DNA of 64,000 nt from Spirochaetota bacterium (GTDB lineage Bacteria > Spirochaetota > UBA4802 > JAFGDQ01). The position numbers and the translations under genes are program-made. The notes beneath the pieces are model-generated. The model worked only from the letters and a program-made list of their open reading frames with translations, was not told where the DNA came from and made no database searches. How positions within the stretch are numbered: position 1 is the stretch's first letter; each line of letters opens with the position of its first letter. The DNA is taken from the NCBI GenBank assembly GCA_043803405.1, contig JAZDKB010000004.1:96001-160000 (forward strand). The letters are read 5' to 3'. Below, one piece after another: positions 19,064 through 32,202 of this stretch.

Positions 19064-22000
19064 ATGTCCAAGAAAGACAACAGATACCCGCAGGAAGGCA
19101 TTGCTATTATTGGTTTGGGGTGTTATTTTCCCAAAGCCAGAGGAATTGATCAATTCTGGCAAAATGTACTAAATAAAGTTAATTGTATAACGGAAATTCC
19201 GAAGGGACGATGGGACCCGGCTGTATATTATAGCCCTGATAAAAATGCTCCTGATAAGACATATTCAAAAATCGGGGGATTTGTTGATCCTTTTGATTTC
19301 AGCATACTTGCAAAAAAGTTTAAAATTCCTCCAATGATATTAAACGCAATGGATGTTACGCAGAAGTTTGCTTTACTGGCAACAAGCGATGCTCTTGAGG
19401 ATGCCGGATACGGCAACAAGGAATTTGACAGGTCAAGAACTGCTGTCATTATCGGCAATTCGATGGGTGGCGATAAATCTGATTATTCGGATTTCAGGGT
19501 ATTCTTAAACGAAGTTGAATATAATTTAAGGAACAGCCCTGCTTTTTCCAGGATCGATCCCGCAACGCAAAATAAAATCATTGAAGAATCCGTATATAAA
19601 CTGAAATCCGGCATTTTGAATATTACCGAGGATACAATGCCCGGAGAGCTTTCCAATGTTATAGCAGGCAGAATTTCGAACGCTTTAAATCTTACGGGAC
19701 AGAGTATTACGGTGGATGCAGCCTGTGCATCTTCTTTCGCAAGCTTTCAGGAAGCGGCAAGAGGATTAAGATGCCATGACTTTGATATGGTAGTGGCTGG
19801 CGGCACTGATTATATGATGGGGCCAAGCCCGTATATTAAATTCAGCAAGATAGGAGCTCTTTCTGCGGATGGCTCAAGACCCTTCGATGCCCGAGCAAAC
19901 GGTTTTGTAATGGGAGAAGGTACCGGTATTTTTATTCTTAAAAGAGTAAGTGACGCAAGGAGAGACGGGAATAAGATATATGCGATACTTGCCGGCATTG
20001 GTGCCTCTGCAGACGGGAAAGGGAAGGGCATTACGGCTCCTAATCCCAAAGGGCAACACCTGGCGGTTTCCAGGGCTCTCGCAGAAGCAGGCTACGGTCC
20101 TGAAACGGTTCAGTATGTTGAAGCGCACGGGACTTCGACTATTGTCGGCGACCTGGCGGAAATGGAAGGACTGCTGAGTGTCTGGGAAAATAAAGGCATA
20201 AAAAATAACTCAATAGGAATCGGATCGGTAAAATCGAATATCGGCCATTTAAAAGCAGCTTCAGGTTCTGCTTCCATAATTAAACTCGCATTAGCTCTTA
20301 AGAATAAGATAATGCCCCCTTCAATAAATTACGAGACTCCGAATCCGAACATTGCCTTTGGCAGGATTCCGTTCAGAGTAATAACCGATCCAACAGAGTG
20401 GCCTAAAGGAATTGACGGCAATCCGAGAAGGGGAAATGCAAGCTCCTTTGGTTTTGGTGGTACGAATTTTCATGCAGTATTTGAAGAAGATACCGGTGAC
20501 AATGGAATGCCTGCGCCTGTAAAATATTATTCGGGTGCGGAATTAACTCAAAATGAAAGTTCTCCGGTTATAAGAGGAGTGCAAAGCTCCGCCCCGCAAA
20601 CAACGGTTTGCGATTATAGTCATAAGAGATATGAATTATCCGAAGAAAACAATAAAAAGCTGCATGGTGAAGCGATAATTATAGGCGGTTCATCATGGAA
20701 TGATATAAATGACAGACTGGCTTCTCTTAAAAAGGAAATAACCGGCAGCAGCATTACAATGCGCGATCTCTTTAAAAGATTCAATATGCAAAGCAATTCT
20801 ATGGACTACAGGCTTGGGATCGCAGCCTTTTCACTTGATGAATTTCTGGGAAAATTTAATTCGGTTCCTGAAGGATTCGAGAATATAAAACGCAGAATGG
20901 TGTTGAAAAACAAAGGCCTTTTTTACGGCGAGCATCTTCTGGAAAAAAAGAAATCCCTGGGAAAAATTTGCTTCCTGTTCCCAGGACAGGGAAACCAGTA
21001 CATAAATATGTTCAAGGATCTTTATAATAAATATAAAGTCTTTAAAGATACATTCGATGAAGCTGACCGTATAATGTATGATTTTATGGGAAAGGGAATT
21101 TCCGATCTTTTTTTCCAGAATGACGATATTTCCGGTAGCGACCTGGAAGCTGCTGAGGAAATGGTTCAGCCTACTGAAATTACCCAGCCGGCGGTATTGG
21201 CTGTAGATTATGCCATGTTCAAGCTATTGCGTAGCTTTGGGATAAATCCGGATGTTGCGGTAGGACATAGCCTTGGTGAATACGGCGCATTGATCGCTGC
21301 TGAAGTTATGAGTTTCAGGGACGCCCTGTATGCGGTTTCTGCGAGAGGCAAAGAGCTGGAGAACATAAAGTGGGATGAAATAGGAAAAATGCTGAGCGTG
21401 TCAGCTTCAACAGAAAAGGCAGAACAGCTTTTGAAAGGAATAACAGGTTATGCAATAATTGCGAATAAGAACTGCAATTCCCAGGTAGTAGTAGGCGGTG
21501 AAGGTAAGGCGGTTCTTCAGGTTATGGACAAATGCAAGGCCGAGGGCATACCTGCCCAGCTTCTCCCTGTATCGCAGGCATTCCATACCAGGGTACTGGA
21601 GCCTGCTGGCCCATCATACAGAAGAACGCTGGAAAATCTCCGGATTAATAGCCCGAAGATAGATATAGTCGCAAATCTTACAGGCGATTATTATCCAAAA
21701 GGTGAAAATGCCCGCGGAAAGATAATAGATATTCTTGTGCAGCATATATCCAATCCTGTTGAATTTATGAAATCAGTTCAAAGGATGTATTCGGACGGAG
21801 TAGATGTTTTTATCGAAGCGGGACCAAAGAGGAATCTCTCTTCATTTATTTTAAATATTCTTGATAAGCAACCCCATCTTTCGATTGCAACGAATCATCC
21901 GAAAAGAGGCGGTATAGGCGCGTTTAATGATACACTTGCTGCGATGTCGACTCACGGGTTCGATATTGACTGGAACGGCATTGATGAGAATGGAAATAGA

Positions 22001-25000
22001 ATGAATGATCCGGACTGGAGATACAGAGATAAATTTCTCGGCAAACCGGAGATAATTACAACAGCATCCGCTGTTATTGAAAAGAAAACTGAAGCTAAAG
22101 GATTTGATATGAGCAATAACGAACAGAAAAAATATCTGAATAATACTGATTACAGCAATGTTTCTATAGATAAGTTTTACGGTGATTTCCAGTCGAAGCA
22201 GAAGAAGCTTCTTGAAGACGTCATGGATATTTACTCTAAAAAGAGCGAGGAACTCCTTAATGAACAGATGAGGGATGCTCTTTATTATAAGAAGGAAGTT
22301 GAGAGGAATAAGATTAATTTTGACAGAGTAATGATCTCGGGCGTGGCAATGGGGCTTCCGGGCGAACGCTTCAAGGTATTTGATGAGCATGTCTACGACA
22401 GGTTGGCCGACGGCATTAATATGATTGATCCTGTTCCTCAGGATGTAAGGGAAAGGATAGCGGAAAAAAATATTACCCGTCTTTTAAAGAAAAGCGACGG
22501 TGAAGCTTCATTTGAAACAATAACTGATAAAGCAGATGTTGTGAAACTGTGCGGGAGAAAAGGCCAGTTTGATCTTCACGAAGAATACGGTGTTGCTAAG
22601 GAATTTATTGAAAACATTGAATCTTCCACTCAGCTTGCCATAGCTGCAACGATTGAAGCGCTTAGGGATGCAGGTATTCCGCTGGTGATGAACTACAAGC
22701 GGACATCGACAAATAAACTGCTGCCCGCGTTCTGGGGGCTTCCCGAAGACATGCAGGAAGAAACCGGGATTATTTTCGGCGCGGCATTCCCGGGTGAAAA
22801 TATGGTTGTTGAAGAATTGTCCAAAGCGCTTGCATATAAATACGGGAGTAAAACAAAAAGGGAACTGGTTAAACTTTATTCATCAATTATTGAAAAAATT
22901 AAAGATGAAAAAGTCAGGGAATTGCTTACTGAATGGTATGCAGAAAATTATTCAATATTAAAAGACGGGATAGGTGAAGAAAATCTTTATCAATTCAACA
23001 GAAAATTCATATTTAAAATTCTGGTTATGGGACACTCTCAGCTGGCGTACTTTATAAAGGCAAAAGGCCCGAACATTCACATTAATGTAGCGTGTTCTTC
23101 AACAACAGCCGGTATAGGTATTGCCGAAGACTGGATACGTACCGGAAGGGTGAAGAGGGTTATTGTAGTGGCTGCGGATGATGTTACTACTAATACGTTT
23201 CTTGAGTGGATACTGAGCGGCTTCCTTGCAGTAGGTGCAGTCAGCACTGAGGAGAAGATTGAAAATGCTGCCATACCGTTCGATAGAAGAAGAAACGGTA
23301 TGATTGTAGGCATGGGCGCAGCATGTCTTGTTGTTGAAGCTGAATCCGAGATCAGAAAAAGAGGGATGGAGCCAATAGTAGAAGTAATATCGACAGAATT
23401 CGGGAACAGCGCGTTTCACGGAACAAGGATAGATAATGTTCACATACGCAGAGTAATGGAAAGAGTTATTTCCAAAGCTGAGGACCGGTTGAATTTGAAA
23501 CGCAGCGATATTGCGAAAAAAATGCTTTTCATGTCACACGAAACTTACACACCTGCACGCGGCGGAAGCGCATCCGCAGAGATCAATGCATTAAGGAATA
23601 CTTTCCAGGACAGTTATAAAGATATTATAGTTTCAAATACAAAGGGCTTCACCGGCCATACTATGGCGGTAGGCATTGAAGATGTTGTTGCTGTAAGGGC
23701 GCTTCAGACAACAAAAGTGCCCCCGATTGCCAATCACAGAGAAGTTGATCCTGATCTTGGAATGATAAACCTAAGTAAAGGCGGGAAATATGAGCATCTT
23801 CAGTATGCTTTAAGGCTGGGGGCAGGATTTGGCTCTCAGATAGCTATGAGCGTGCTGAAGCTTGTTAGCAGAAAAGAAGACCGTATTATTAATAAGGGCG
23901 CATATTCTGAATGGCTGAAAAAGATGTCGGGGATTGAGAATCCGCAGATCGAAGTAGTAAAGAAGACTTTACGCATTAAAGACGATGGTTCTATAATGAA
24001 AAAAGACAGGGCTGCATTTGTTGAAGCTGCAGCCACTGAAACTCCTATAGATGACGATATTGCGGTGCGCTATGCCGATTCATCGGCTGCGGCGCAAAGG
24101 CAGCAGGTTGCGGCATTTCAGCCGCAGGTTTCTCCGGCAGCCGCTCCTCAGACTGCACAGGCAGATGAAGCAATTAAGCAAAAGATAATGAAGATAGTAG
24201 GCGAGAAGACGGGATATCCGGAAGACCTGATTGAGTTTGACCTGGATATGGAAAGCGATCTTGGAATAGACACTGTTAAGCAGGCAGAGATGTTCGGCGT
24301 AATCCGCGAGACATTCGGTATTGCCGCGGACGAAACTATCCGGATAAAGGATTTTCCGACTCTTAATCATGTAATCGGATTTGTGAAAACAAAGTCGCCG
24401 CAATTCGCGGGACTGGCTGCGGCCTATACGGCGCCGGCAGTTCAGACAGTATCTGCTCCGGCTGCTGCAGTCGCCGGGGCTCCTGCGGGCGCGCTTGACG
24501 GCATCAAAAAGAAAATAATGAAGATAGTAGGCGAGAAAACAGGCTATCCTGAAGACCTGATCGAGTTCGATCTTGATATGGAAAGCGATCTTGGAATAGA
24601 TACTGTTAAGCAGGCAGAGATGTTCGGCCTGATACGCGATACTTTTAATATACCTGCTGATGAGAGCATCCGGATAAAGGACTTCCCGACGCTTAACCAC
24701 GTAATCGGGTTTGTGAGATCAAAGTCGCCGCAATTCGCTGGAATGCCGGATGCTGCGTTTGCTGCGCCTTCTGTTCAGGCTCAGCCTGCTGCTATGCAAG
24801 CGCAGTCAGTATCTGCTCCGGCTGCTGCGGTCGCCGGAGCTCCTGCGGGCGTGCTTGACGACATCAGAAAAAAAGTGATGAAGATAGTAGGCGAGAAGAC
24901 AGGCTATCCGGAAGACCTGATCGAGTTTGACCTTGATATGGAAAGCGATCTTGGAATAGATACCGTTAAACAGGCAGAGATGTTCGGGCTTATCCGCGAG

Positions 25001-28000
25001 ACGTTCAATATTCCGACTGATGAGAGCATAAGGATAAAGGATTTTCCGACTCTGAACCATGTTATTGGATTTATTACGTCAAAGTCGCCGCAGTTCGCTG
25101 GAATTGCAGCGGCTGCGTTAGTTGCGCCTTCTGTTCAGGTTCAGCCTGCTGCAATACCTACACAGGCTGTAGCTGTTCCGGCTGCTGCTGTCGCCGGGGT
25201 GCCTGCTGACGGGCTTGATAATATCAGAAAGAAAATAGTTAAGATAGTTGAAGAGAAGACAGGTTACCCTGAAGACCTGATAGAGTTCGATCTTGATATG
25301 GAGAGCGATCTTGGAATAGATACTGTTAAGCAGGCAGAGATGTTCGGCCTGATACGCGAAACATTCGGTATACCTTCTGACGAGACTATCCGGATAAAAG
25401 ATTTTCCGACTCTTAATCACGTGATCGGGTTCGTAAGGACTAAGTCGCCGCAATTTGCAGGAATGGCACAGGCCGCTCCTGCAGCAGCGCCGGTTGTTCC
25501 TGCACAGCCAGCTGCTTCACCTGCGCAGGCTGTATCTGTTCCGGCTGCTGCAGTCGCCGGTGTGCCTGCGGGCGAACTGGACGACATCAGAAAAAAAATA
25601 GTAAAGATAGTTGAAGAGAAGACCGGTTACTCCGAAGACCTGATCGAATTTGATCTTGATATGGAAAGCGATCTTGGAATAGATACGGTTAAACAGGCAG
25701 AGATGTTCGGCCTGATACGTGAAAGATTTAATATTCCTGCTGACGAGACTATCCGCATAAAGGATTTCCCGACTCTTAATCATGTGATCGGGTTCGTAAA
25801 ATCAAAGTCTCCGCAATTTGCAGGAGCTGCTACTCAGACGAAACCTATTGAAGAGCAACAGACTGTAACAACAGAAGTTAAGGAGGCTGTAAAAAGCAAT
25901 ATTAAAAGAATGACTATCGAGATGCGCGAAGAGCCTCTTGATAAGAAAGGAACGCCCAGATTCAACTTTAAAGGGCTTAACATACTTATAACTGATGACG
26001 GCAAAGGCGTAGCAACTGCAATCGAAAAAACTTTGAAAGAAGCTGAAGCCAGTGTCGAGATTATCAATCAAACCGAAATGGAAGATGTTGGTAATTTAAA
26101 GAAAGCAATCGAGAGAGCAAAGAAGTCCGGAAAAATAAATGGCGTCATTCATCTGACTTCATTTGAAGAATCTAAATCTCTTGATGATATGAGCTTTGAA
26201 GACTGGAGAAAAAATATTTTCAGAAGAGTAAAATCCCTGTATTATATTTCGAAAACACTTCAGCAGGATATTAAAGAAAGCGGCAAAAATAATACTGCAT
26301 TTCTTGTGTCTGTAACGGACATGGGAGGCACATTCGGAGTTAACGATTTTACATCGAACAATCCGATTGGCGGCGGCGTGAGCGGACTTACAAAAGGACT
26401 GGATAAGGAATTTAACCAGACTAAGAAGGAAGTCCTGGTAAAGGCAATTGATTTATCTTCATTGGATAAACCGGCTGCTGCTGCGAAGACAATACTTAGC
26501 GAGATTCAGTTCGGAAGCCGGAGAGTCGAAGTTGGATATGTTGGCAGAACCAGGATGGTCCCACAGGTTATTTATAAGGACATTGATTTCAGCATAGAAC
26601 CGAGAACAGCTCTTGGCGAAGGATCGGTCTTTGTTGTCACAGGAGGCGGCTACGGCATCACAAGCGCAATTGCCAAGGATATAGCAAAAAATTTAAAGGC
26701 AAAGCTCGCGATCATTTCACTTGAGACTTTGCCTGAGAATATTACGGAGCTTGCTAATCTTGATGCGAACGGACTAAAGCAGCTTAAGGATAAAGTCGTT
26801 GCCGAACTTAAGTCGAAGAATGAGCGCGTTACTCCTGTGATGATAGACAAGGAATACAGTAAATACACGATCGCTATCGATATTTACAAAAATGTTGAGG
26901 AAATGAAAAGGCTCGGAGCGCCCGATGTTGCGTATTACAGCTGCAACGTAATGGATAACGCGGCCATGACTGATATAATCAATAAGATCAGGGAAAGATT
27001 CGGCAGGATCGATGCCGTAATACACGGCGCAGGCATAAACAAGGATAAATTCCTTGAAGATAAATCCTTTGAGGACTTTTCGCTTGTTGTAGATGTAAAG
27101 GCTGACGGGTGTTACAATATAATGGAAGCAGTAAAGAAAGACGGGGTAAAGGCTCTCGTTACTTTTGCTTCAATATCCGGACGTTTCGGGAACATCGGAC
27201 AGACGGATTATTCGTCGGCGAATGACCTGCTCAACAAATACGTGGAGCATTCGAACAGAAGATTTGCGCCGGATATGAAGGCAGTGTCCATGAACTGGAG
27301 CGGATGGCTGGGCGTCGGTATGGCAACCCGCGGAAGCATAGCCAAGATATTCGAAGAAAGCGGCGTTGACATGATCCCGATGGAAGAAGGGATAACCAAG
27401 GTAAGGGAAGAATTGCTGTATGGCAATGATGCCGAAATCATAGTGGCAGGCAGGGTAGGAGCAATAGACAGCGATAACATCATAGCAGGCGATAAAAATA
27501 ATGATTATCTGGCAGCTGTCAAACGCCTTGAATCAAAGGATCAGTTTCCTTTAATTGATGAGATAATAAACCTGAAGCCGAATCGTTCAATCGTCGTTAA
27601 AAAGAAGCTCGATACAGAAGCGGATGTTTATTTGAAAGATCACGCTATTGAAAACATACCGTATTTTCCTGCTGTTATGGGAATCGAGACATTTGCGGAA
27701 ACAGCGGTTCTTTTATTTCCGAAAAAACGCGTAAAATTAATGAAAGATATTAAGTTCAATATCCCGATTAAAATTTTTAAAGGCAAGCCGCTGGATCTTA
27801 TTACGACTGCGGAAAAAGTTAGCGAGCAGAATGGAGAGATTACACTAAAGGCCAGAATAGAAACCGAGTTCTTTAACAAAGCCGGAGTAAAGCTTGGCGA
27901 CAATAAACTGCATTTTGAGGCAGAGATTGTGCTTTCGGACAAGGGCGCTGACAAGAAAAGTTTAAAATCGGATGGAGTCGATATTGAGTTAATACAGAAA

Positions 28001-28462
28001 GCAAAAGGTAAAAAAATAATTAACGAAGAAGAGATTTATAAGAGATTCTTCCATGGTCCTAAATTTCAGGTACATGCCGGAGTAATTAAAATAAAAGAAG
28101 AAATGATATATGGTTTACTCTCTGCCAAAAATGCGAAGGGTGAAGATCATTTTACTTTTGTAAAGAAGCCGCATTTTATTGCCAATCCGATGGCTATTGA
28201 AGCAGCGTTCCAGAACGCCGGGCTTTACGCAATGACCAAAGAAAATAAAATGTCGCTTCCGGATGGAATAGATGAACTTGTATTCGTTCAGATTCCTGCA
28301 GGCGCAAAAGAGCTTTTTATGAGCGCTAAATACATTAAACATGATGATCTGAAACACGAATACGATACGGTTATACTTGACGGTCAGGGAAATGTTTATT
28401 CGGTAATGAAAGGTTACAGAATGATAAACATAGGAGACTTGAAAGAAAATGAGAAGTTTTAG
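19064..28462 (+). CDS. Type I iterative PKS/FAS, PfaA-like: KS-AT-KS-(ACP)x5-KR-DH
   Basis: KS1 DAACASS/HGTST/GHLKAASG; AT FPGQG/GHSLG/SQAFH; KS2 NVACSST/SHETYT/GHTMAVG; five ACP repeats DLGIDTVK; KR TGGGYGIT/GQTDYSSAN; DH LKDHAIENIPYFP and FHGPKFQ. Confidence 0.92.
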   Translation: MSKKDNRYPQEGIAIIGLGCYFPKARGIDQFWQNVLNKVNCITEIPKGRWDPAVYYSPDKNAPDKTYSKIGGFVDPFDFSILAKKFKIPPMILNAMDVTQKFALLATSDALEDAGYGNKEFDRSRTAVIIGNSMGGDKSDYSDFRVFLNEVEYNLRNSPAFSRIDPATQNKIIEESVYKLKSGILNITEDTMPGELSNVIAGRISNALNLTGQSITVDAACASSFASFQEAARGLRCHDFDMVVAGGTDYMMGPSPYIKFSKIGALSADGSRPFDARANGFVMGEGTGIFILKRVSDARRDGNKIYAILAGIGASADGKGKGITAPNPKGQHLAVSRALAEAGYGPETVQYVEAHGTSTIVGDLAEMEGLLSVWENKGIKNNSIGIGSVKSNIGHLKAASGSASIIKLALALKNKIMPPSINYETPNPNIAFGRIPFRVITDPTEWPKGIDGNPRRGNASSFGFGGTNFHAVFEEDTGDNGMPAPVKYYSGAELTQNESSPVIRGVQSSAPQTTVCDYSHKRYELSEENNKKLHGEAIIIGGSSWNDINDRLASLKKEITGSSITMRDLFKRFNMQSNSMDYRLGIAAFSLDEFLGKFNSVPEGFENIKRRMVLKNKGLFYGEHLLEKKKSLGKICFLFPGQGNQYINMFKDLYNKYKVFKDTFDEADRIMYDFMGKGISDLFFQNDDISGSDLEAAEEMVQPTEITQPAVLAVDYAMFKLLRSFGINPDVAVGHSLGEYGALIAAEVMSFRDALYAVSARGKELENIKWDEIGKMLSVSASTEKAEQLLKGITGYAIIANKNCNSQVVVGGEGKAVLQVMDKCKAEGIPAQLLPVSQAFHTRVLEPAGPSYRRTLENLRINSPKIDIVANLTGDYYPKGENARGKIIDILVQHISNPVEFMKSVQRMYSDGVDVFIEAGPKRNLSSFILNILDKQPHLSIATNHPKRGGIGAFNDTLAAMSTHGFDIDWNGIDENGNRMNDPDWRYRDKFLGKPEIITTASAVIEKKTEAKGFDMSNNEQKKYLNNTDYSNVSIDKFYGDFQSKQKKLLEDVMDIYSKKSEELLNEQMRDALYYKKEVERNKINFDRVMISGVAMGLPGERFKVFDEHVYDRLADGINMIDPVPQDVRERIAEKNITRLLKKSDGEASFETITDKADVVKLCGRKGQFDLHEEYGVAKEFIENIESSTQLAIAATIEALRDAGIPLVMNYKRTSTNKLLPAFWGLPEDMQEETGIIFGAAFPGENMVVEELSKALAYKYGSKTKRELVKLYSSIIEKIKDEKVRELLTEWYAENYSILKDGIGEENLYQFNRKFIFKILVMGHSQLAYFIKAKGPNIHINVACSSTTAGIGIAEDWIRTGRVKRVIVVAADDVTTNTFLEWILSGFLAVGAVSTEEKIENAAIPFDRRRNGMIVGMGAACLVVEAESEIRKRGMEPIVEVISTEFGNSAFHGTRIDNVHIRRVMERVISKAEDRLNLKRSDIAKKMLFMSHETYTPARGGSASAEINALRNTFQDSYKDIIVSNTKGFTGHTMAVGIEDVVAVRALQTTKVPPIANHREVDPDLGMINLSKGGKYEHLQYALRLGAGFGSQIAMSVLKLVSRKEDRIINKGAYSEWLKKMSGIENPQIEVVKKTLRIKDDGSIMKKDRAAFVEAAATETPIDDDIAVRYADSSAAAQRQQVAAFQPQVSPAAAPQTAQADEAIKQKIMKIVGEKTGYPEDLIEFDLDMESDLGIDTVKQAEMFGVIRETFGIAADETIRIKDFPTLNHVIGFVKTKSPQFAGLAAAYTAPAVQTVSAPAAAVAGAPAGALDGIKKKIMKIVGEKTGYPEDLIEFDLDMESDLGIDTVKQAEMFGLIRDTFNIPADESIRIKDFPTLNHVIGFVRSKSPQFAGMPDAAFAAPSVQAQPAAMQAQSVSAPAAAVAGAPAGVLDDIRKKVMKIVGEKTGYPEDLIEFDLDMESDLGIDTVKQAEMFGLIRETFNIPTDESIRIKDFPTLNHVIGFITSKSPQFAGIAAAALVAPSVQVQPAAIPTQAVAVPAAAVAGVPADGLDNIRKKIVKIVEEKTGYPEDLIEFDLDMESDLGIDTVKQAEMFGLIRETFGIPSDETIRIKDFPTLNHVIGFVRTKSPQFAGMAQAAPAAAPVVPAQPAASPAQAVSVPAAAVAGVPAGELDDIRKKIVKIVEEKTGYSEDLIEFDLDMESDLGIDTVKQAEMFGLIRERFNIPADETIRIKDFPTLNHVIGFVKSKSPQFAGAATQTKPIEEQQTVTTEVKEAVKSNIKRMTIEMREEPLDKKGTPRFNFKGLNILITDDGKGVATAIEKTLKEAEASVEIINQTEMEDVGNLKKAIERAKKSGKINGVIHLTSFEESKSLDDMSFEDWRKNIFRRVKSLYYISKTLQQDIKESGKNNTAFLVSVTDMGGTFGVNDFTSNNPIGGGVSGLTKGLDKEFNQTKKEVLVKAIDLSSLDKPAAAAKTILSEIQFGSRRVEVGYVGRTRMVPQVIYKDIDFSIEPRTALGEGSVFVVTGGGYGITSAIAKDIAKNLKAKLAIISLETLPENITELANLDANGLKQLKDKVVAELKSKNERVTPVMIDKEYSKYTIAIDIYKNVEEMKRLGAPDVAYYSCNVMDNAAMTDIINKIRERFGRIDAVIHGAGINKDKFLEDKSFEDFSLVVDVKADGCYNIMEAVKKDGVKALVTFASISGRFGNIGQTDYSSANDLLNKYVEHSNRRFAPDMKAVSMNWSGWLGVGMATRGSIAKIFEESGVDMIPMEEGITKVREELLYGNDAEIIVAGRVGAIDSDNIIAGDKNNDYLAAVKRLESKDQFPLIDEIINLKPNRSIVVKKKLDTEADVYLKDHAIENIPYFPAVMGIETFAETAVLLFPKKRVKLMKDIKFNIPIKIFKGKPLDLITTAEKVSEQNGEITLKARIETEFFNKAGVKLGDNKLHFEAEIVLSDKGADKKSLKSDGVDIELIQKAKGKKIINEEEIYKRFFHGPKFQVHAGVIKIKEEMIYGLLSAKNAKGEDHFTFVKKPHFIANPMAIEAAFQNAGLYAMTKENKMSLPDGIDELVFVQIPAGAKELFMSAKYIKHDDLKHEYDTVILDGQGNVYSVMKGYRMINIGDLKENEKF
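24170..25820 (+). repeat. Five tandem ACP-encoding repeats with Ala/Pro/Gln-rich linkers
   Basis: Near-identical units (GAAGACCTGAT.GAGTT.GA.CT.GATATGGA.AGCGATCTTGGAATAGA) spaced 330, 360, 360 and 363 bp. Confidence 0.95.
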
Positions 28463-29273
28463 GAACACATATTATGATATAAAAGAGCATCATAATCATA
28501 CACTTAAATTTCTTAATTCCAGTATCGCGTTTATCGATATCGAAAATGTCAAAAAGCGAATGAGCAAAAGAGGCGAGCATGCTTATGATGATTTTCTGAC
28601 CGATTGGGAAAATTCTTATATTAACGAACTAAAAGTTCCTAAAAGGAAAATGGATTTTCTTTGCGGAAGGCTTGCAGGCAAAAGAGCTGTCAGAAGACAT
28701 CTGATAAAAAATTCCTATGCAGGTATTGAAGATGGGAAAGAACATCCGGTTTTTAAAGACATTGAGATAAAAAGAACAGTAACCGGAAGGCCGCTTGTAT
28801 TTATTAAAGACGGATCATCTCCAAACGGCTCATCCGAGTACCATGTTTCAATTTCGCACACGGAAGGCGTTGCAGCTTCTCTTGTGTCAAATAAGATGGA
28901 TTGCAAAGGCATCGGCATAGATATTGAAAGGATAGAAGAAAGGGACACTTCGTTGTTAAATGTGGCTTTTACGGAACAGGAAATAAGTAAATTACTAAAA
29001 AATTTTTCCGGACAAAACGGAAATACAAAAATAATATTTGAGAATAATGTAGCTAAATACTGGTCAATAAAAGAAGCGGTAATGAAGTGCATGGGTGTTG
29101 GAGTAAATATTGATCTGAAGGATATCGAAATAACGGTTTCCGGCGATTATAATTCGGTAGTGAGTTTAAAGAATGAAGCTCAGAGTAGATTTGAGCTGCT
29201 AAAAGGGAGTGATTTAAAAATAGAGTCTACAAAAATTGAAAAGTTTATGATTTCCATAGCCTGTCTGTATTAG
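28449..29273 (+). CDS. 4'-phosphopantetheinyl transferase (Sfp/EntD-type)
   Basis: FLCGRLAGK, GRP, SISHT, GIGIDIE and WSIKEAVMK motifs; overlaps the PKS 3' end by 14 nt. Confidence 0.9.
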   Translation: MRSFRNTYYDIKEHHNHTLKFLNSSIAFIDIENVKKRMSKRGEHAYDDFLTDWENSYINELKVPKRKMDFLCGRLAGKRAVRRHLIKNSYAGIEDGKEHPVFKDIEIKRTVTGRPLVFIKDGSSPNGSSEYHVSISHTEGVAASLVSNKMDCKGIGIDIERIEERDTSLLNVAFTEQEISKLLKNFSGQNGNTKIIFENNVAKYWSIKEAVMKCMGVGVNIDLKDIEITVSGDYNSVVSLKNEAQSRFELLKGSDLKIESTKIEKFMISIACLY

Positions 29274-29281
29274 TAGTTATT

Positions 29282-30220
29282 ATGCAAAATGAAAAGTCAA
29301 AATATATTTTAAATGACGGGCTTCTCGACGAACCGTTAATTGAATCGGAATTTAATTCCGAACTTTTGGAAGTAACAAGTTCTGCTGCTTTTAAAGCTAA
29401 TGATAAATCGGCAAGGATAATTAGCGATCATATTTACAAGTATTTCGAAAAAGTAAGCAATGATCTTTATAATGCTAACAGTTCGAAATTAATACCCGAT
29501 CTGATAAGTATTTTAATACAGGTAATGAAATCGTCAGGTATTGAAAAAGTATCGTTTCGTGTGGATATATTAGGCAATATTATCGATTTTTTTAAACATG
29601 ATGGCAAGCCGCCCAAAAAGCCAAAAAGCAAAGACAAACGCCAGGCTGTTCTCGATGCTGCGATGATTGTTTTTTCAAGAACCGGATTTCACGAAACCCA
29701 TGTAGATGAAATCGCGGAGCTGGCCGGGGTGGCGAAGGGCACGGTATATCGTTATTTCCAGAGCAAGGAAGATATTTTAAGAGAGATTATTAAAGCCAAT
29801 AACGAAGTGCTGACAAAAGATCTAATGATTATTTTCAATAAGGACGGGCATATACTTGAACTTATAAAAGAAGCTATTGAATACTATGTGGAATTTTTTG
29901 ACAGCAATAAGGATCTTTATAAAATACTTACACATGCGCCGTGGATATTGAATGATATAAGTGATCATTTTTATAAAAATATTATTTCTCATCTTAATGT
30001 TGTGAGGAGAAGAGTTTTTACTTTAACAAGAGAAGGCGTGGTTAAACCGACCGATTTTTATACTGTATTCTACGGCATTTTCGGATTTATTGACGGAGTA
30101 ATACAGAAGTGGTTCAGGCGGAACTGCGAATATTCATTAAAGGAGGAGCTATCGGTTATAATTGAAGTATTATTTTACGGATTTGTTTCGGAAGGTGAGA
30201 GAAAAGAAAAATTTATTTAA
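29282..30220 (+). CDS. TetR/AcrR family regulator with a long N-terminal extension
   Basis: HTH AAMIVFSRTGFHET.VDEIAELAGVAKGTVYRYFQSKEDI starting near residue 120. Confidence 0.88.
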   Translation: MQNEKSKYILNDGLLDEPLIESEFNSELLEVTSSAAFKANDKSARIISDHIYKYFEKVSNDLYNANSSKLIPDLISILIQVMKSSGIEKVSFRVDILGNIIDFFKHDGKPPKKPKSKDKRQAVLDAAMIVFSRTGFHETHVDEIAELAGVAKGTVYRYFQSKEDILREIIKANNEVLTKDLMIIFNKDGHILELIKEAIEYYVEFFDSNKDLYKILTHAPWILNDISDHFYKNIISHLNVVRRRVFTLTREGVVKPTDFYTVFYGIFGFIDGVIQKWFRRNCEYSLKEELSVIIEVLFYGFVSEGERKEKFI

Positions 30221-30357: not shown

Positions 30358-32202
30358 ATGGCAAAACTAAAATACAATGACTTAATGTTCAATTTTGAAA
30401 AATGCGTACAATGGCAGGACATCGCAGACGCATTGGGCAAAGAAAACCACTTTGATGAATATATGATGACAATGAAAACAGTGGGAGACTTTGTCCAGAA
30501 CCTGGTTGAACCCTTTGCAGAAGAGATTGACAATGATGAATGCAGGGTTGAGACCGACAGTAACGGCAAAAATAAAGTAAGAATAGCCGAGCCCATGGCC
30601 AAGCATTTTGAGAAGCTGAAAGAACTGGGTCTTTTTTGCGGAGTTACAATACCTGAAGAGCAAGGCGGTTTTAATTTCCCGCTGACTGCATTTTTTGGAT
30701 TCGGCGAAGTAATTACAATGGGGGATTCAAGCCTAGGACTTACACCCATGCTTAACGAAGGATGCGCACAGGTAATCTCCGAGTATGCGAACGAAAAAAT
30801 ATGCGCGGAATATCTGCCAAAGCTTATTTCCGGAGAAAGACTTTGTGCAATGGGCTTAACCGAGCCTAGTGCCGGAAGCGACCTTGTTGCTGGAATACAG
30901 ACAACGGCAAGACCTGTTGACAAGGAAAAGGATAAAGACAAAGCTGAAAGGATAAGCGAACTTGAGAAACTGGGAGACGTTTATATTATTAACGGCACAA
31001 AGATATTCATATCAAACGGATACGGAGATGTGCTTACGCTTGCAAAAATAAATGACGGAATCAGCATGTTTTTAGTATATGAAGAAGATAAAGTAGTTCC
31101 CAGAATAGAGCACAAATTAGGCATAAGGGGCTCTGCAACATGCGAAATATTTTACGACAATTCCCCCGGAGTTTTAATCGGCGAGCTGGGCGGTGGTTTA
31201 ATACCGAACATGCTGAAGCTGATGAACATTGCAAGACTCGGAGTCGCCACTCAGGGCCTCGCGATAGGAGAAAGAGCCCACAGATACGCTATTGAGTATG
31301 CTAATGTCCGTGTTCAGTTCGGCGTTCCAATTATTCAGCATTCTCCGGTACGCCAGATAATATTTGAAAACGAGATCGAACTGCAGGCTTCGCGCGCCCT
31401 TGTTTATACCGGAGCATATTATTTTGATATGCGCCTTGCGCTAAATAAAAGATTAAAGACGCTTAAAGAAGGCACACCGGAGTATACAGAAGTAAAAAAC
31501 AAGCAGAGAAAATATTCCAGAATTGCGGAGATATTAATATCGCTTTCCAAATATGATGCAACGGAACTCGGAAATAAGGTAGCAAGCTCATCATTGCAGG
31601 TTTTCGGCGGATACGGTTTCACCAGGGAATATCCAATGGAGCGTTTCTACAGAGACGTAAGAATTACAAATATTTATGAAGGAACTACCCAGATACAGGT
31701 TGAGCAGGTATTTAACGAGACGTTCTATGTCGATAAAGTCGGACTTATCAACCAGTTCAAACTTGGCGGGAATAAAGGATTTGTCGAGAATGATAAGAAC
31801 AGAGTATTCCTTGATATCTTTCTTAATGAATATAAAAATGAAATACTCTCGAAATCTGCGGGTAATCCTGTATTGTCAGGGTTGATAAATAAAGTCGATA
31901 AAATGAGAGAATATTTAAAAGAAGCCAGACAAATACTTTTTATTGAAGAAAGAAACCGCGGAAAAGAGCTGGGCAGGAAATATAACGCGATATATCAGCA
32001 GAATTATGTTGATATTGTGGATGCCTGCATAAAAAGTTATCTCTTAATGAAACAGTCGCTTATTGCAGATTACAAGCTTCCGGTCGCAAAATCATTCATT
32101 GACCGTGCAATAGTTAAAACCGAGTATTGCAAAAACAGCATTAAAAGCTGCGTGGACGATTTAATCGGAGATACGTATTTTAAAATTGTTGGCGAAGAAT
32201 AG
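30358..32202 (+). CDS. Acyl-CoA (or acyl-ACP) dehydrogenase, long form
   Basis: MGLTEPSAGSD, NGTKIFISNG, KLGIRGSAT, R.QFG.PI, GGYGFT.EY and IYEGT catalytic Glu. Confidence 0.9.
   Translation: MAKLKYNDLMFNFEKCVQWQDIADALGKENHFDEYMMTMKTVGDFVQNLVEPFAEEIDNDECRVETDSNGKNKVRIAEPMAKHFEKLKELGLFCGVTIPEEQGGFNFPLTAFFGFGEVITMGDSSLGLTPMLNEGCAQVISEYANEKICAEYLPKLISGERLCAMGLTEPSAGSDLVAGIQTTARPVDKEKDKDKAERISELEKLGDVYIINGTKIFISNGYGDVLTLAKINDGISMFLVYEEDKVVPRIEHKLGIRGSATCEIFYDNSPGVLIGELGGGLIPNMLKLMNIARLGVATQGLAIGERAHRYAIEYANVRVQFGVPIIQHSPVRQIIFENEIELQASRALVYTGAYYFDMRLALNKRLKTLKEGTPEYTEVKNKQRKYSRIAEILISLSKYDATELGNKVASSSLQVFGGYGFTREYPMERFYRDVRITNIYEGTTQIQVEQVFNETFYVDKVGLINQFKLGGNKGFVENDKNRVFLDIFLNEYKNEILSKSAGNPVLSGLINKVDKMREYLKEARQILFIEERNRGKELGRKYNAIYQQNYVDIVDACIKSYLLMKQSLIADYKLPVAKSFIDRAIVKTEYCKNSIKSCVDDLIGDTYFKIVGEE

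Follow-up and report, generated by a model that had tools for sequence, protein, structure and literature searches.

The closest described relatives of the locus studied here are the Type R secondary-lipid synthases of Shulse and Allen (2011), which the accessible text of that paper (PMC3098273) describes as one pfaA homologue with the order KS-MAT-CLF-ACP(3-6)-KR (ketosynthase, malonyl acyltransferase, chain length factor, three to six acyl carrier proteins, ketoreductase), followed by a gene for a phosphopantetheinyl transferase (PPTase). The same text gives Acidobacteria, Elusimicrobia and Chloroflexi as hosts, reports an acetyl-CoA carboxylase gene intervening in Koribacter, names the second KS-like domain CLF, assigns the PPTase an hShxH (P1b') motif and treats the product as uncharacterised. 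We analysed a cluster of this type in a 64,000-nucleotide stretch of a Spirochaetota genome (GCA_043803405.1, contig JAZDKB010000004.1, positions 96,001 to 160,000), hereafter the window, where a PfaA-like synthase carries Thr instead of Ser at the attachment site of all five of its carrier domains and is followed by its own PPTase gene.

Textbooks and annotation tools take attachment of the 4'-phosphopantetheine (Ppant) arm to an invariant Ser as the rule, and carrier domains lacking that Ser are usually scored as inactive. To our knowledge, all characterised PPTase acceptors are Ser. The synthase family to which this locus belongs is large and widespread and departs from this rule in each of its carrier domains, while all other signs indicate function. 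From comparative sequence evidence, we consider it likely that the Thr is the real Ppant attachment residue of the Type R tandem ACPs.

Threonine at the carrier site

The synthase, its carrier domains and the PPTase lie in the window as follows (aa, amino acids; KS2, second KS-like domain; AT, acyltransferase; DH, dehydratase; ORF, open reading frame).

19064..28462, + strand: PfaA-like iterative synthase, 3132 aa, KS-AT-KS2(CLF-like)-5xACP-KR-DH (ORF list, translation, Pfam)
24164..24430, + strand: ACP1, Thr1737, codon ACT at 24272
24494..24760, + strand: ACP2, Thr1847, codon ACT at 24602
24854..25120, + strand: ACP3, Thr1967, codon ACC at 24962
25214..25480, + strand: ACP4, Thr2087, codon ACT at 25322
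25577..25843, + strand: ACP5, Thr2208, codon ACG at 25685
28449..29273, + strand: Sfp-type 4'-phosphopantetheinyl transferase, 274 aa (PF01648, E 8e-18; 4PPT_N)

All five repeats read MESDLGIDTVKQAEM, in the translation of 24170-25800 and in that of the whole ORF, and the Ser usually found in carrier proteins at the N terminus of helix II is absent, with Thr in its place in every copy. The five codons had been reported in an earlier note on this DNA, and re-translation agrees with it exactly. A degenerate DNA pattern for D-L-G-[VI]-D-(WSN)-V-K-Q-A-E, in which WSN at the site position admits Thr, Ser, Arg, Cys or Trp codons, matches the window five times (24257, 24587, 24947, 25307 and 25670), with 0 matches expected by chance (100 shuffles). 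The Pfam PP-binding family PF00550 covers five stretches of the synthase (93.2 bits against a gathering cut-off of 20.8), with no carrier domain beyond these five in the synthase and no further PF00550 match in the whole contig, and the note likewise saw no other Ser-type ACP in the synthase or the window. The 10 other carrier domains of the window's genome all use Ser.

The position of the Thr within the domain is the canonical one, as the note had proposed. In phmmer searches against PDB chains its aligned counterpart is the Ppant Ser, both in the PigH ACPs (DLGVDSI, DLGIDSV) and in type II ACPs (DLGADSL). An AlphaFold2 model of ACP1 (89 residues, built from a 40-row alignment) has a mean predicted local distance difference test (pLDDT) score of 87.9 and four helices at residues 2-16, 37-51, 67-77 and 79-87, the Thr being residue 37 and thereby the first residue of helix II; Foldseek finds that the model resembles solved ACPs with template modelling (TM) scores of 0.70-0.78. 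Among the five repeats of the window, dN/dS is 0.03-0.10 and dS is 0.7-2.4, so the copies differ mainly at synonymous sites and each is under its own purifying selection. The strand opposite the repeats holds a 206-aa ORF (24080-24700, - strand), which probably results from the composition of the repeats and is unlikely to be a gene.

Thr is also the residue of the wider family. Of 8000 candidates scored in a search with the ACP region, 4742 proteins reached E<=1e-3. The best 120 of these share the same architecture, and a loose regular-expression count over 122 proteins from this search gave 627 Thr and 2 Ser at the site, a count that leans towards Thr because the candidates were chosen by shared words. 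With each species represented by a single genome, a motif-neutral DNA scan that used the same degenerate site pattern gave at least 123 loci. Among the matches listed there are 328 Thr codons (ACC 163, ACG 132, ACT 19 and ACA 14) against 1 Ser codon, and their record titles name Acidobacteriota, Actinomycetota, Chloroflexota, Elusimicrobiota, Myxococcota, Gemmatimonadota, Rhodothermales, Bdellovibrionota and Heimdallarchaeota as hosts. The ACPs play no part in retrieval when only the KS2 domain (window 22061-24043) is used as the query, here against 1.84 billion cluster representatives. This search gave 7965 matches at E<=1e-3 and 558 at E<=1e-30; 127 of the best 150 of the 7965 contain carrier domains, whose sites are 344 Thr, 9 Ser and 1 Gly, the last in a degenerate, low-scoring domain.

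Thr is strongly preferred by selection across the family; the proposal that it is kept by selection had been made before, and the low dN/dS of the repeats together with the use of all four Thr codons in the family bear it out. Sequencing error and pseudogene formation were ruled out by the pattern matches, the family-wide Thr codons, the low dN/dS and the intact catalytic motifs.

Across 622 ACP domains taken from 120 homologues, the block LE-A-DLG-[VI]-D-T-V-K-Q-A-E hardly varies. The note had offered the Ser six residues upstream of the Thr (ME-S-DLG) as an alternative acceptor, an idea that fails on these domains: the position is Ala in 96% of them and Ser in 4%, and we ruled it out. No conserved alternative Ser exists in the same alignment either, as Ser stays at or below 31% at every position, and the two results together remove the alternative acceptor Ser.

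Family-type ACPs are present in 13 of 301 genomes sampled from the window's phylum. The sample also contains, in the window's order, a second Thr class, made up of synthases of 3700-4100 aa with two to six tandem ACPs reading DLGIDTVKQVEIFG (loci L180 and L182-L186, in genomes G158, G283, G078, G066, G186 and G107), whose PPTases are located 5-19 kb upstream and not directly downstream.

Ser occurs at the site in a small number of proteins. The only Ser locus among the DNA-scan matches listed, L029, codes for an AT-ACP-ACP protein with EADLGVDSVKQAE, an architecture unlike that of the Thr synthases; it has no PPTase within 10 kb, and the best match to the family PPTase profile in its genome reaches just 42 bits. 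Four proteins among the best 150 KS2 matches carry Ser, namely P0169 (five DSVKVAE domains), P0189, P0199 and P0190. Each of them is nested in a Thr-only clade of a KS2 tree of 110 representative rows (FastTree only), so that the residue must have changed independently four times or more. The counterpart of P0190 in a complete Heimdallarchaeum genome (locus L028) is a synthase with ACPs that read Ser, Thr and Ser and a PPTase fused at its end. This Heimdallarchaeum aukensis synthase with its C-terminal PPTase spans L028:5408-13594, and a near-identical free-standing PPTase gene lies 2 kb downstream (L028:15667-16290). Two genomes of the phylum sample (G306:C70 and G016) have canonical Ser-type PfaA ACPs reading DLGIDSIKRVEIL. 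As the site tolerates only Thr or Ser, it fits an acceptor hydroxyl and not a purely structural residue.

The linked phosphopantetheinyl transferase

The start of the PPTase gene overlaps the synthase stop by 14 nt, and the PF01648 match confirms the Sfp-type PPTase that the note had placed there. The protein contains the motifs GIDIE and WSIKEAVMK, and VSISH at residue 133 is its hShxH motif. TIGR00556 matches residues 153-256 with 63 bits and TIGR00516 matches residues 29-146, both halves being AcpS-like. The window's genome, which is 94% complete, has just two PF01648 matches, of which this gene is the sole Sfp-type one. The other PPTase domain, outside the window (G000:C36:91105-91626), resembles AcpS and forms part of an open frame of 504 aa; similar frames of 470-578 aa recur in related genomes and suggest that AcpS is joined to a further domain in a conserved fusion.

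We assessed linkage in 78 Thr loci, that is, the 80 loci with fetched flanks minus L024 (same contig as L023) and L029 (Ser type). A PPTase is found downstream of the ACPs in 61 of the 78, or 61 of the 65 with enough flank. Among these 61, 25 immediately follow the synthase on its own strand, 1 is adjacent on the opposite strand, 7 are fused to the synthase C terminus and 28 lie at 8.1-9.2 kb. Thirteen of the 78 loci end less than 2.7 kb past the ACPs. The other four have 10 kb of downstream sequence without a PPTase, but all four genomes hold a match of 199-217 bits elsewhere, which in two of them falls just beyond the locus edge. Each of the seven genomes of the close type in the phylum sample, the window's own included, encodes a PPTase scoring at least 133 bits on the contig of its ACPs, roughly 3 kb downstream of them. 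One further genome of the sample, and no other, has such a PPTase. In its locus, L189 (G258:C22:1-12000), a block of 200 N takes up the expected position of the tandem ACPs, upstream of the family-type PPTase, and probably reflects a gap in the assembly of the repeats or a withheld stretch. The PPTase is genetically tied to the synthase.

Two of the 28 loci with a gap between the synthase and the PPTase were examined. Both, from Acidobacteriaceae and Nostocoides (L032:13843-19305 and L020:14509-19878), carry there an acetyl-CoA carboxylase of about 1800 aa, a eukaryote-like multidomain protein with the order BC-BCCP-ACC_central-CT. Its position between the two genes suggests a self-contained supply of malonyl-CoA.

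This linkage bears on the possibility that the Thr domains are never phosphopantetheinylated, and serve instead as scaffold or docking repeats while the chains are carried by a free ACP or another residue and the PPTase works for other carriers. Such a scheme would fit with the free AcpP-like ACPs with Ser in the window's genome, with the window PPTase being the sole Sfp-type enzyme for the other carriers of that genome, and with the E. coli work, which, in its accessible part, treats Ser-to-Thr ACP variants as unmodifiable. It would not explain why strong purifying selection maintains each of three to eight tandem copies, with the site at the centre of an invariant DLG-x-D-T-VKQ motif, why only Ser ever substitutes for Thr in a domain that has no conserved Ser anywhere, or why the PPTase is fused to synthases in which these are the only carrier domains; moreover, the smallest conserved unit in the accessible Type R description is the synthase plus the PPTase. 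We therefore regard unmodified Thr domains as very improbable.

The nature of the enzyme bears on another alternative, in which the Thr hydroxyl carries something other than Ppant, either another CoA-derived prosthetic group or an acyl chain as an oxoester. Carriers with Ser-linked phosphoribosyl-dephospho-CoA exist in citrate lyase and malonate decarboxylase, and the need for a hydroxyl at the site would be satisfied, though nothing speaks for this directly. The enzyme linked to the synthase is an ordinary Sfp-type PPTase whose Mg/CoA motifs are canonical, the Pfam-scanned neighbours include no prosthetic-group synthase genes of the citrate-lyase type, and the Claisen condensation catalysed by KS domains needs thioesters, all of which make a different group on the Thr extremely unlikely.

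Proposed threonine-linked phosphopantetheine and the probable acceptor range of the transferase

Ppant on Thr would account for the acceptor position of the residue, its fixation across the family, its replacement by Ser only, the lack of any other suitable Ser and a PPTase that is co-inherited with the synthase or fused to it. In the proposed mechanism, the Sfp-type PPTase would move Ppant from CoA onto the hydroxyl of the Thr, predicted to be the first residue of helix II in the tandem ACPs, to give O-(4'-phosphopantetheinyl)-threonine. Malonyl units and growing chains would then ride the arm between KS, AT, KR and DH as usual, so that the synthase would be an ordinary iterative KS/AT/KR/DH machine with parallel ACPs. 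In other lineages the same step would be carried out by a PPTase fused to the synthase, or by one encoded after a dedicated acetyl-CoA carboxylase gene. The earlier note had proposed a functional system with Thr-linked Ppant and, with it, a specialised PPTase forming an orthogonal pair with the ACPs; the first part gains comparative support from position, invariance and linkage and is probably right, while the second is not supported.

In a strictly orthogonal pair, the PPTase would be specific for Thr and reject Ser, other PPTases would reject the Thr ACPs, and the two partners would have co-evolved as one insulated unit. Several of our results point in this direction. Thr is almost fixed in the family (328:1 among the DNA-scan matches listed and 344:9 in the best 150 KS2 matches), the PPTase is co-inherited with the Thr synthase, and one genome (G306) has a Thr synthase with its own PPTase beside a Ser-type pfa cluster with a different one. 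A first PPTase tree of 83 rows, made from all PF01648 genes of ten Thr-bearing genomes and the window's genome plus the Thr-linked PPTases, placed 61 of 63 Thr-linked rows on one side of a split with a support of 75, with 4 label changes against 18 after shuffling. For a second tree of 92 rows, Ser-linked pfa PPTases, PPTases of the second Thr class and more relatives were added, and 8 AcpS-type or long-branch rows were dropped beforehand. Over both trees the labels change 4-5 times against 18-20 in shuffles, so the Thr-linked PPTases do cluster. Some residues are also kept mainly in the Thr-linked enzymes, namely the Arg in a KRR motif and the Glu and Arg that follow GxDxE.

The remaining evidence on the PPTases weighs against Thr-linked Ppant, and we set it out here with the other points that do so. 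In the second tree the deep nodes are poorly supported (27) and Ser-linked rows nest among the Thr-linked groups, and no alignment column separates Thr-linked from Ser-linked PPTases; a PPTase residue that could account for the use of Thr was looked for and not found. The synthase-adjacent PPTase could in principle serve the Ser carriers of the genome instead, and the Ser-Thr-Ser protein could also represent a dead Thr domain between two live Ser domains. An E. coli ACP with the S36T substitution is presented, in the accessible part of PMC13343975, as a variant that loses Ppant-dependent behaviour or interaction, so ordinary PPTases would not be expected to use Thr. Our literature search found no biochemical evidence for Ppant on Thr in any system. 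On the other side, a co-fold of the PPTase with ACP, CoA and Mg reached a median of 0.56 (3 runs) against 0.00 for the best of 3 controls, with runs that agree in at least 88% of contacts and a partner pLDDT of at least 80. In calibration, the mark it passed was reached by 116 solved complexes out of 157 and by 2 mismatched pairs out of 215, though scores of 0.60 or below came from just 18 of those solved complexes and from both mismatches. As this result was graded by the tool, without contacts listed, it lends the modelled pairing weak support, and its signal may be mere likeness or memory because Sfp-carrier complexes have already been solved.

Several results also speak against an orthogonal pair. 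Monophyly of the Thr-linked PPTases is not shown, as the deep split falls from a support of 75 to 27 with more rows; of the check proposed in the earlier note, the co-occurrence of a PPTase with Thr ACPs is found (61 of 65 loci) and the monophyletic PPTase clade is not. The Ser-linked pfa PPTases that nest among Thr-linked groups, with no support at deep nodes, speak against strict specificity, as do the PPTases of the second Thr class, which lack the residues of the supposed Thr set, while one Ser-linked enzyme has several of them. Ser reappears four independent times within Thr clades, and the Heimdallarchaeum ACPs with Ser, Thr and Ser are served by one fused PPTase plus its near-identical free copy. 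The window's genome has Ser carriers resembling those of nonribosomal peptide synthetases (NRPS) and polyketide synthases (PKS), and no second Sfp-type PPTase in the 94% that the assembly covers. The note had itself named interchange of Ser and Thr without co-variation of the PPTase as evidence against its proposal, and interchange of the two residues is what the four separate reappearances of Ser among 110 representatives show. With Ser nested in Thr clades, Ser-Thr-Ser ACPs and PPTases that do not separate, we consider an orthogonal pair unlikely.

The family PPTase probably accepts Ser as well as Thr. This is suggested both by the Ser-Thr-Ser synthase with its fused PPTase and by the single Sfp-type PPTase available for several Ser carriers in the window's genome. 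Why Thr is preferred is a matter for speculation: it might insulate the ACPs against other PPTases or against Ppant hydrolases, or its phosphodiester might better withstand beta-elimination.

We lean, if only slightly, towards a wider proposal, in which O-(4'-phosphopantetheinyl)-threonine would be an undescribed linkage and the rule in thousands of PfaA-like synthases from more than 10 bacterial phyla and from Asgard archaea, whose PPTases would have gained the use of a secondary alcohol and in which Thr would be kept because its methyl group alters the chemistry or the cross-talk of the arm, for instance by making it resist hydrolases or beta-elimination or by insulating it from housekeeping PPTases. 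No paper on Thr phosphopantetheinylation or on a DLGIDTVKQAE motif was found in a search that covered subscription journals poorly, so a prior description is possible. Two literature matches on "Ppant-Thr" apparently refer, in their accessible parts, to threonyl-loaded arms in NRPS studies and were judged irrelevant, and the accessible text of PMC13291983 speaks only of the conserved Ser in its own ACPs.

The synthase, its neighbours and known systems

The synthase ORF is 9.4 kb long and contains, besides the carrier domains, the following.

19094..20494, + strand: KS1, residues 11-477, with the Cys-His-His motifs DAACASS 218, EAHGT 353 and NIGH 392 (PF00109, PF02801, PF16197)
20972..21832, + strand: acyltransferase, residues 637-923, GHSLG at 734 (PF00698, E 1e-40)
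22331..24013, + strand: KS2, second KS-like domain (second PF00109 and PF02801 stretches; PF08545 at 1340-1376)
26627..27307, + strand: ketoreductase, residues 2522-2748, TGGGYGIT 2526 and YSSAN 2716 (PF08659, E 4e-35)
27548..28441, + strand: PKS-type dehydratase, residues 2829-3126, HAIENIPYFP at 2860 (PF21089, PF14765)

A motif search of the translation found the catalytic motifs of KS1, AT, KS2, KR and DH all present, in line with the earlier statement that the catalytic residues of KS, AT, KR and DH look intact, and KS2 here retains the Cys and the two His (ACSS 1343, SHET 1491, TGHT 1530). Judged by these intact motifs, the synthase looks functional. It has no enoyl reductase (ER) or thioesterase (TE) domain, and it passes the NCBIfam model TIGR02813 (omega_3_PfaA) narrowly, with 1050.3 bits for a curated cut-off of 1010.1.

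The neighbours of the synthase are an epimerase, a DUF218 protein, an ABC ATPase, a TPR protein, the PPTase and two further genes downstream of it.

29282..30220, + strand: TetR-family regulator with weak likeness to Bacillus-type FadR (PF00440; NF053878, 77 bits, cut-off 200)
30358..32202, + strand: acyl-CoA dehydrogenase (ACAD), 614 aa, FadE-like (Pfam Acyl-CoA_dh N, M and C; NCBIfam matches below their cut-offs)

Among these neighbours, to which the search was confined, there are no pfaB, pfaC or pfaD partners (AT, KS-CLF-DH2 and ER, respectively). The order synthase-PPTase-TetR-ACAD is also found in a related genus (G306), so these genes are syntenic partners, and the TetR and ACAD genes offer a hint only of a link to fatty-acid metabolism in the window's lineage. 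G306, a genome of the window's own family, carries both the Thr and the Ser systems. Its Thr-type synthase-PPTase-TetR-ACAD unit is syntenic with the window (L191, G306:C69:62000-81999), and a canonical pfa cluster on another contig has its own PPTase, a PfaD-like ER, a Ser-type PfaA (DLGIDSIKRVE) and a PfaC-like protein (L190, G306:C70:16000-35999).

If the Thr does carry the arm, it would represent a new protein modification and the calls of inactive carriers made in genome mining would change; the family would also provide a natural ACP/PPTase set for testing the selective loading of Thr carriers. The residue gives in addition a handle on the Type R synthases, which were described in 2011 with an uncharacterised product and in some phyla lie beside their own acetyl-CoA carboxylase.

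Among known systems, the transferase resembles the Sfp/PfaE-type PPTases in its PF01648 domain, its two-half pseudo-dimer and its GxDxE and WxxKExxxK motifs, and a profile of 43 family PPTases matches Sfp (1qr0, 4mrt) at about 1e-15; the difference is that the presumed acceptor hydroxyl here is on Thr. The enediyne PKSs (PKSE) are iterative synthases with the order KS-AT-ACP-KR-DH-PPTase, a single Ser ACP, no ER or TE and no second KS, and the seven Thr loci with a fused PPTase share with them its C-terminal position. PfaA (TIGR02813) has in common with the window the order KS-AT-tandem ACP-KR-DH', the motif LEADLGID-x-[IV]K with Lys at +2 and a dedicated PfaE-type PPTase. However, the PfaA ACPs read DLGIDSIKRVE with Ser (as in G306:C70 and G016) while those of the window have Thr followed by VKQAE, and the window synthase has an extra KS-like domain before the ACPs and no adjacent PfaB, PfaC or PfaD.

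As far as the accessible text of PMC3098273 allows the comparison, the cluster is of the known Type R. The window shows both features by which membership is judged, with KS-AT-KS2-ACP5-KR-DH in the synthase and a downstream PPTase that contains VSISH. It differs from the published account in that the words "threonine" and "serine" each occur 0 times in the main text of that paper, in the version accessible, and in that the Thr family is far wider, adding Actinomycetota, Myxococcota, Gemmatimonadota, Rhodothermales, Bdellovibrionota and Heimdallarchaeota to the hosts of this type of synthase.

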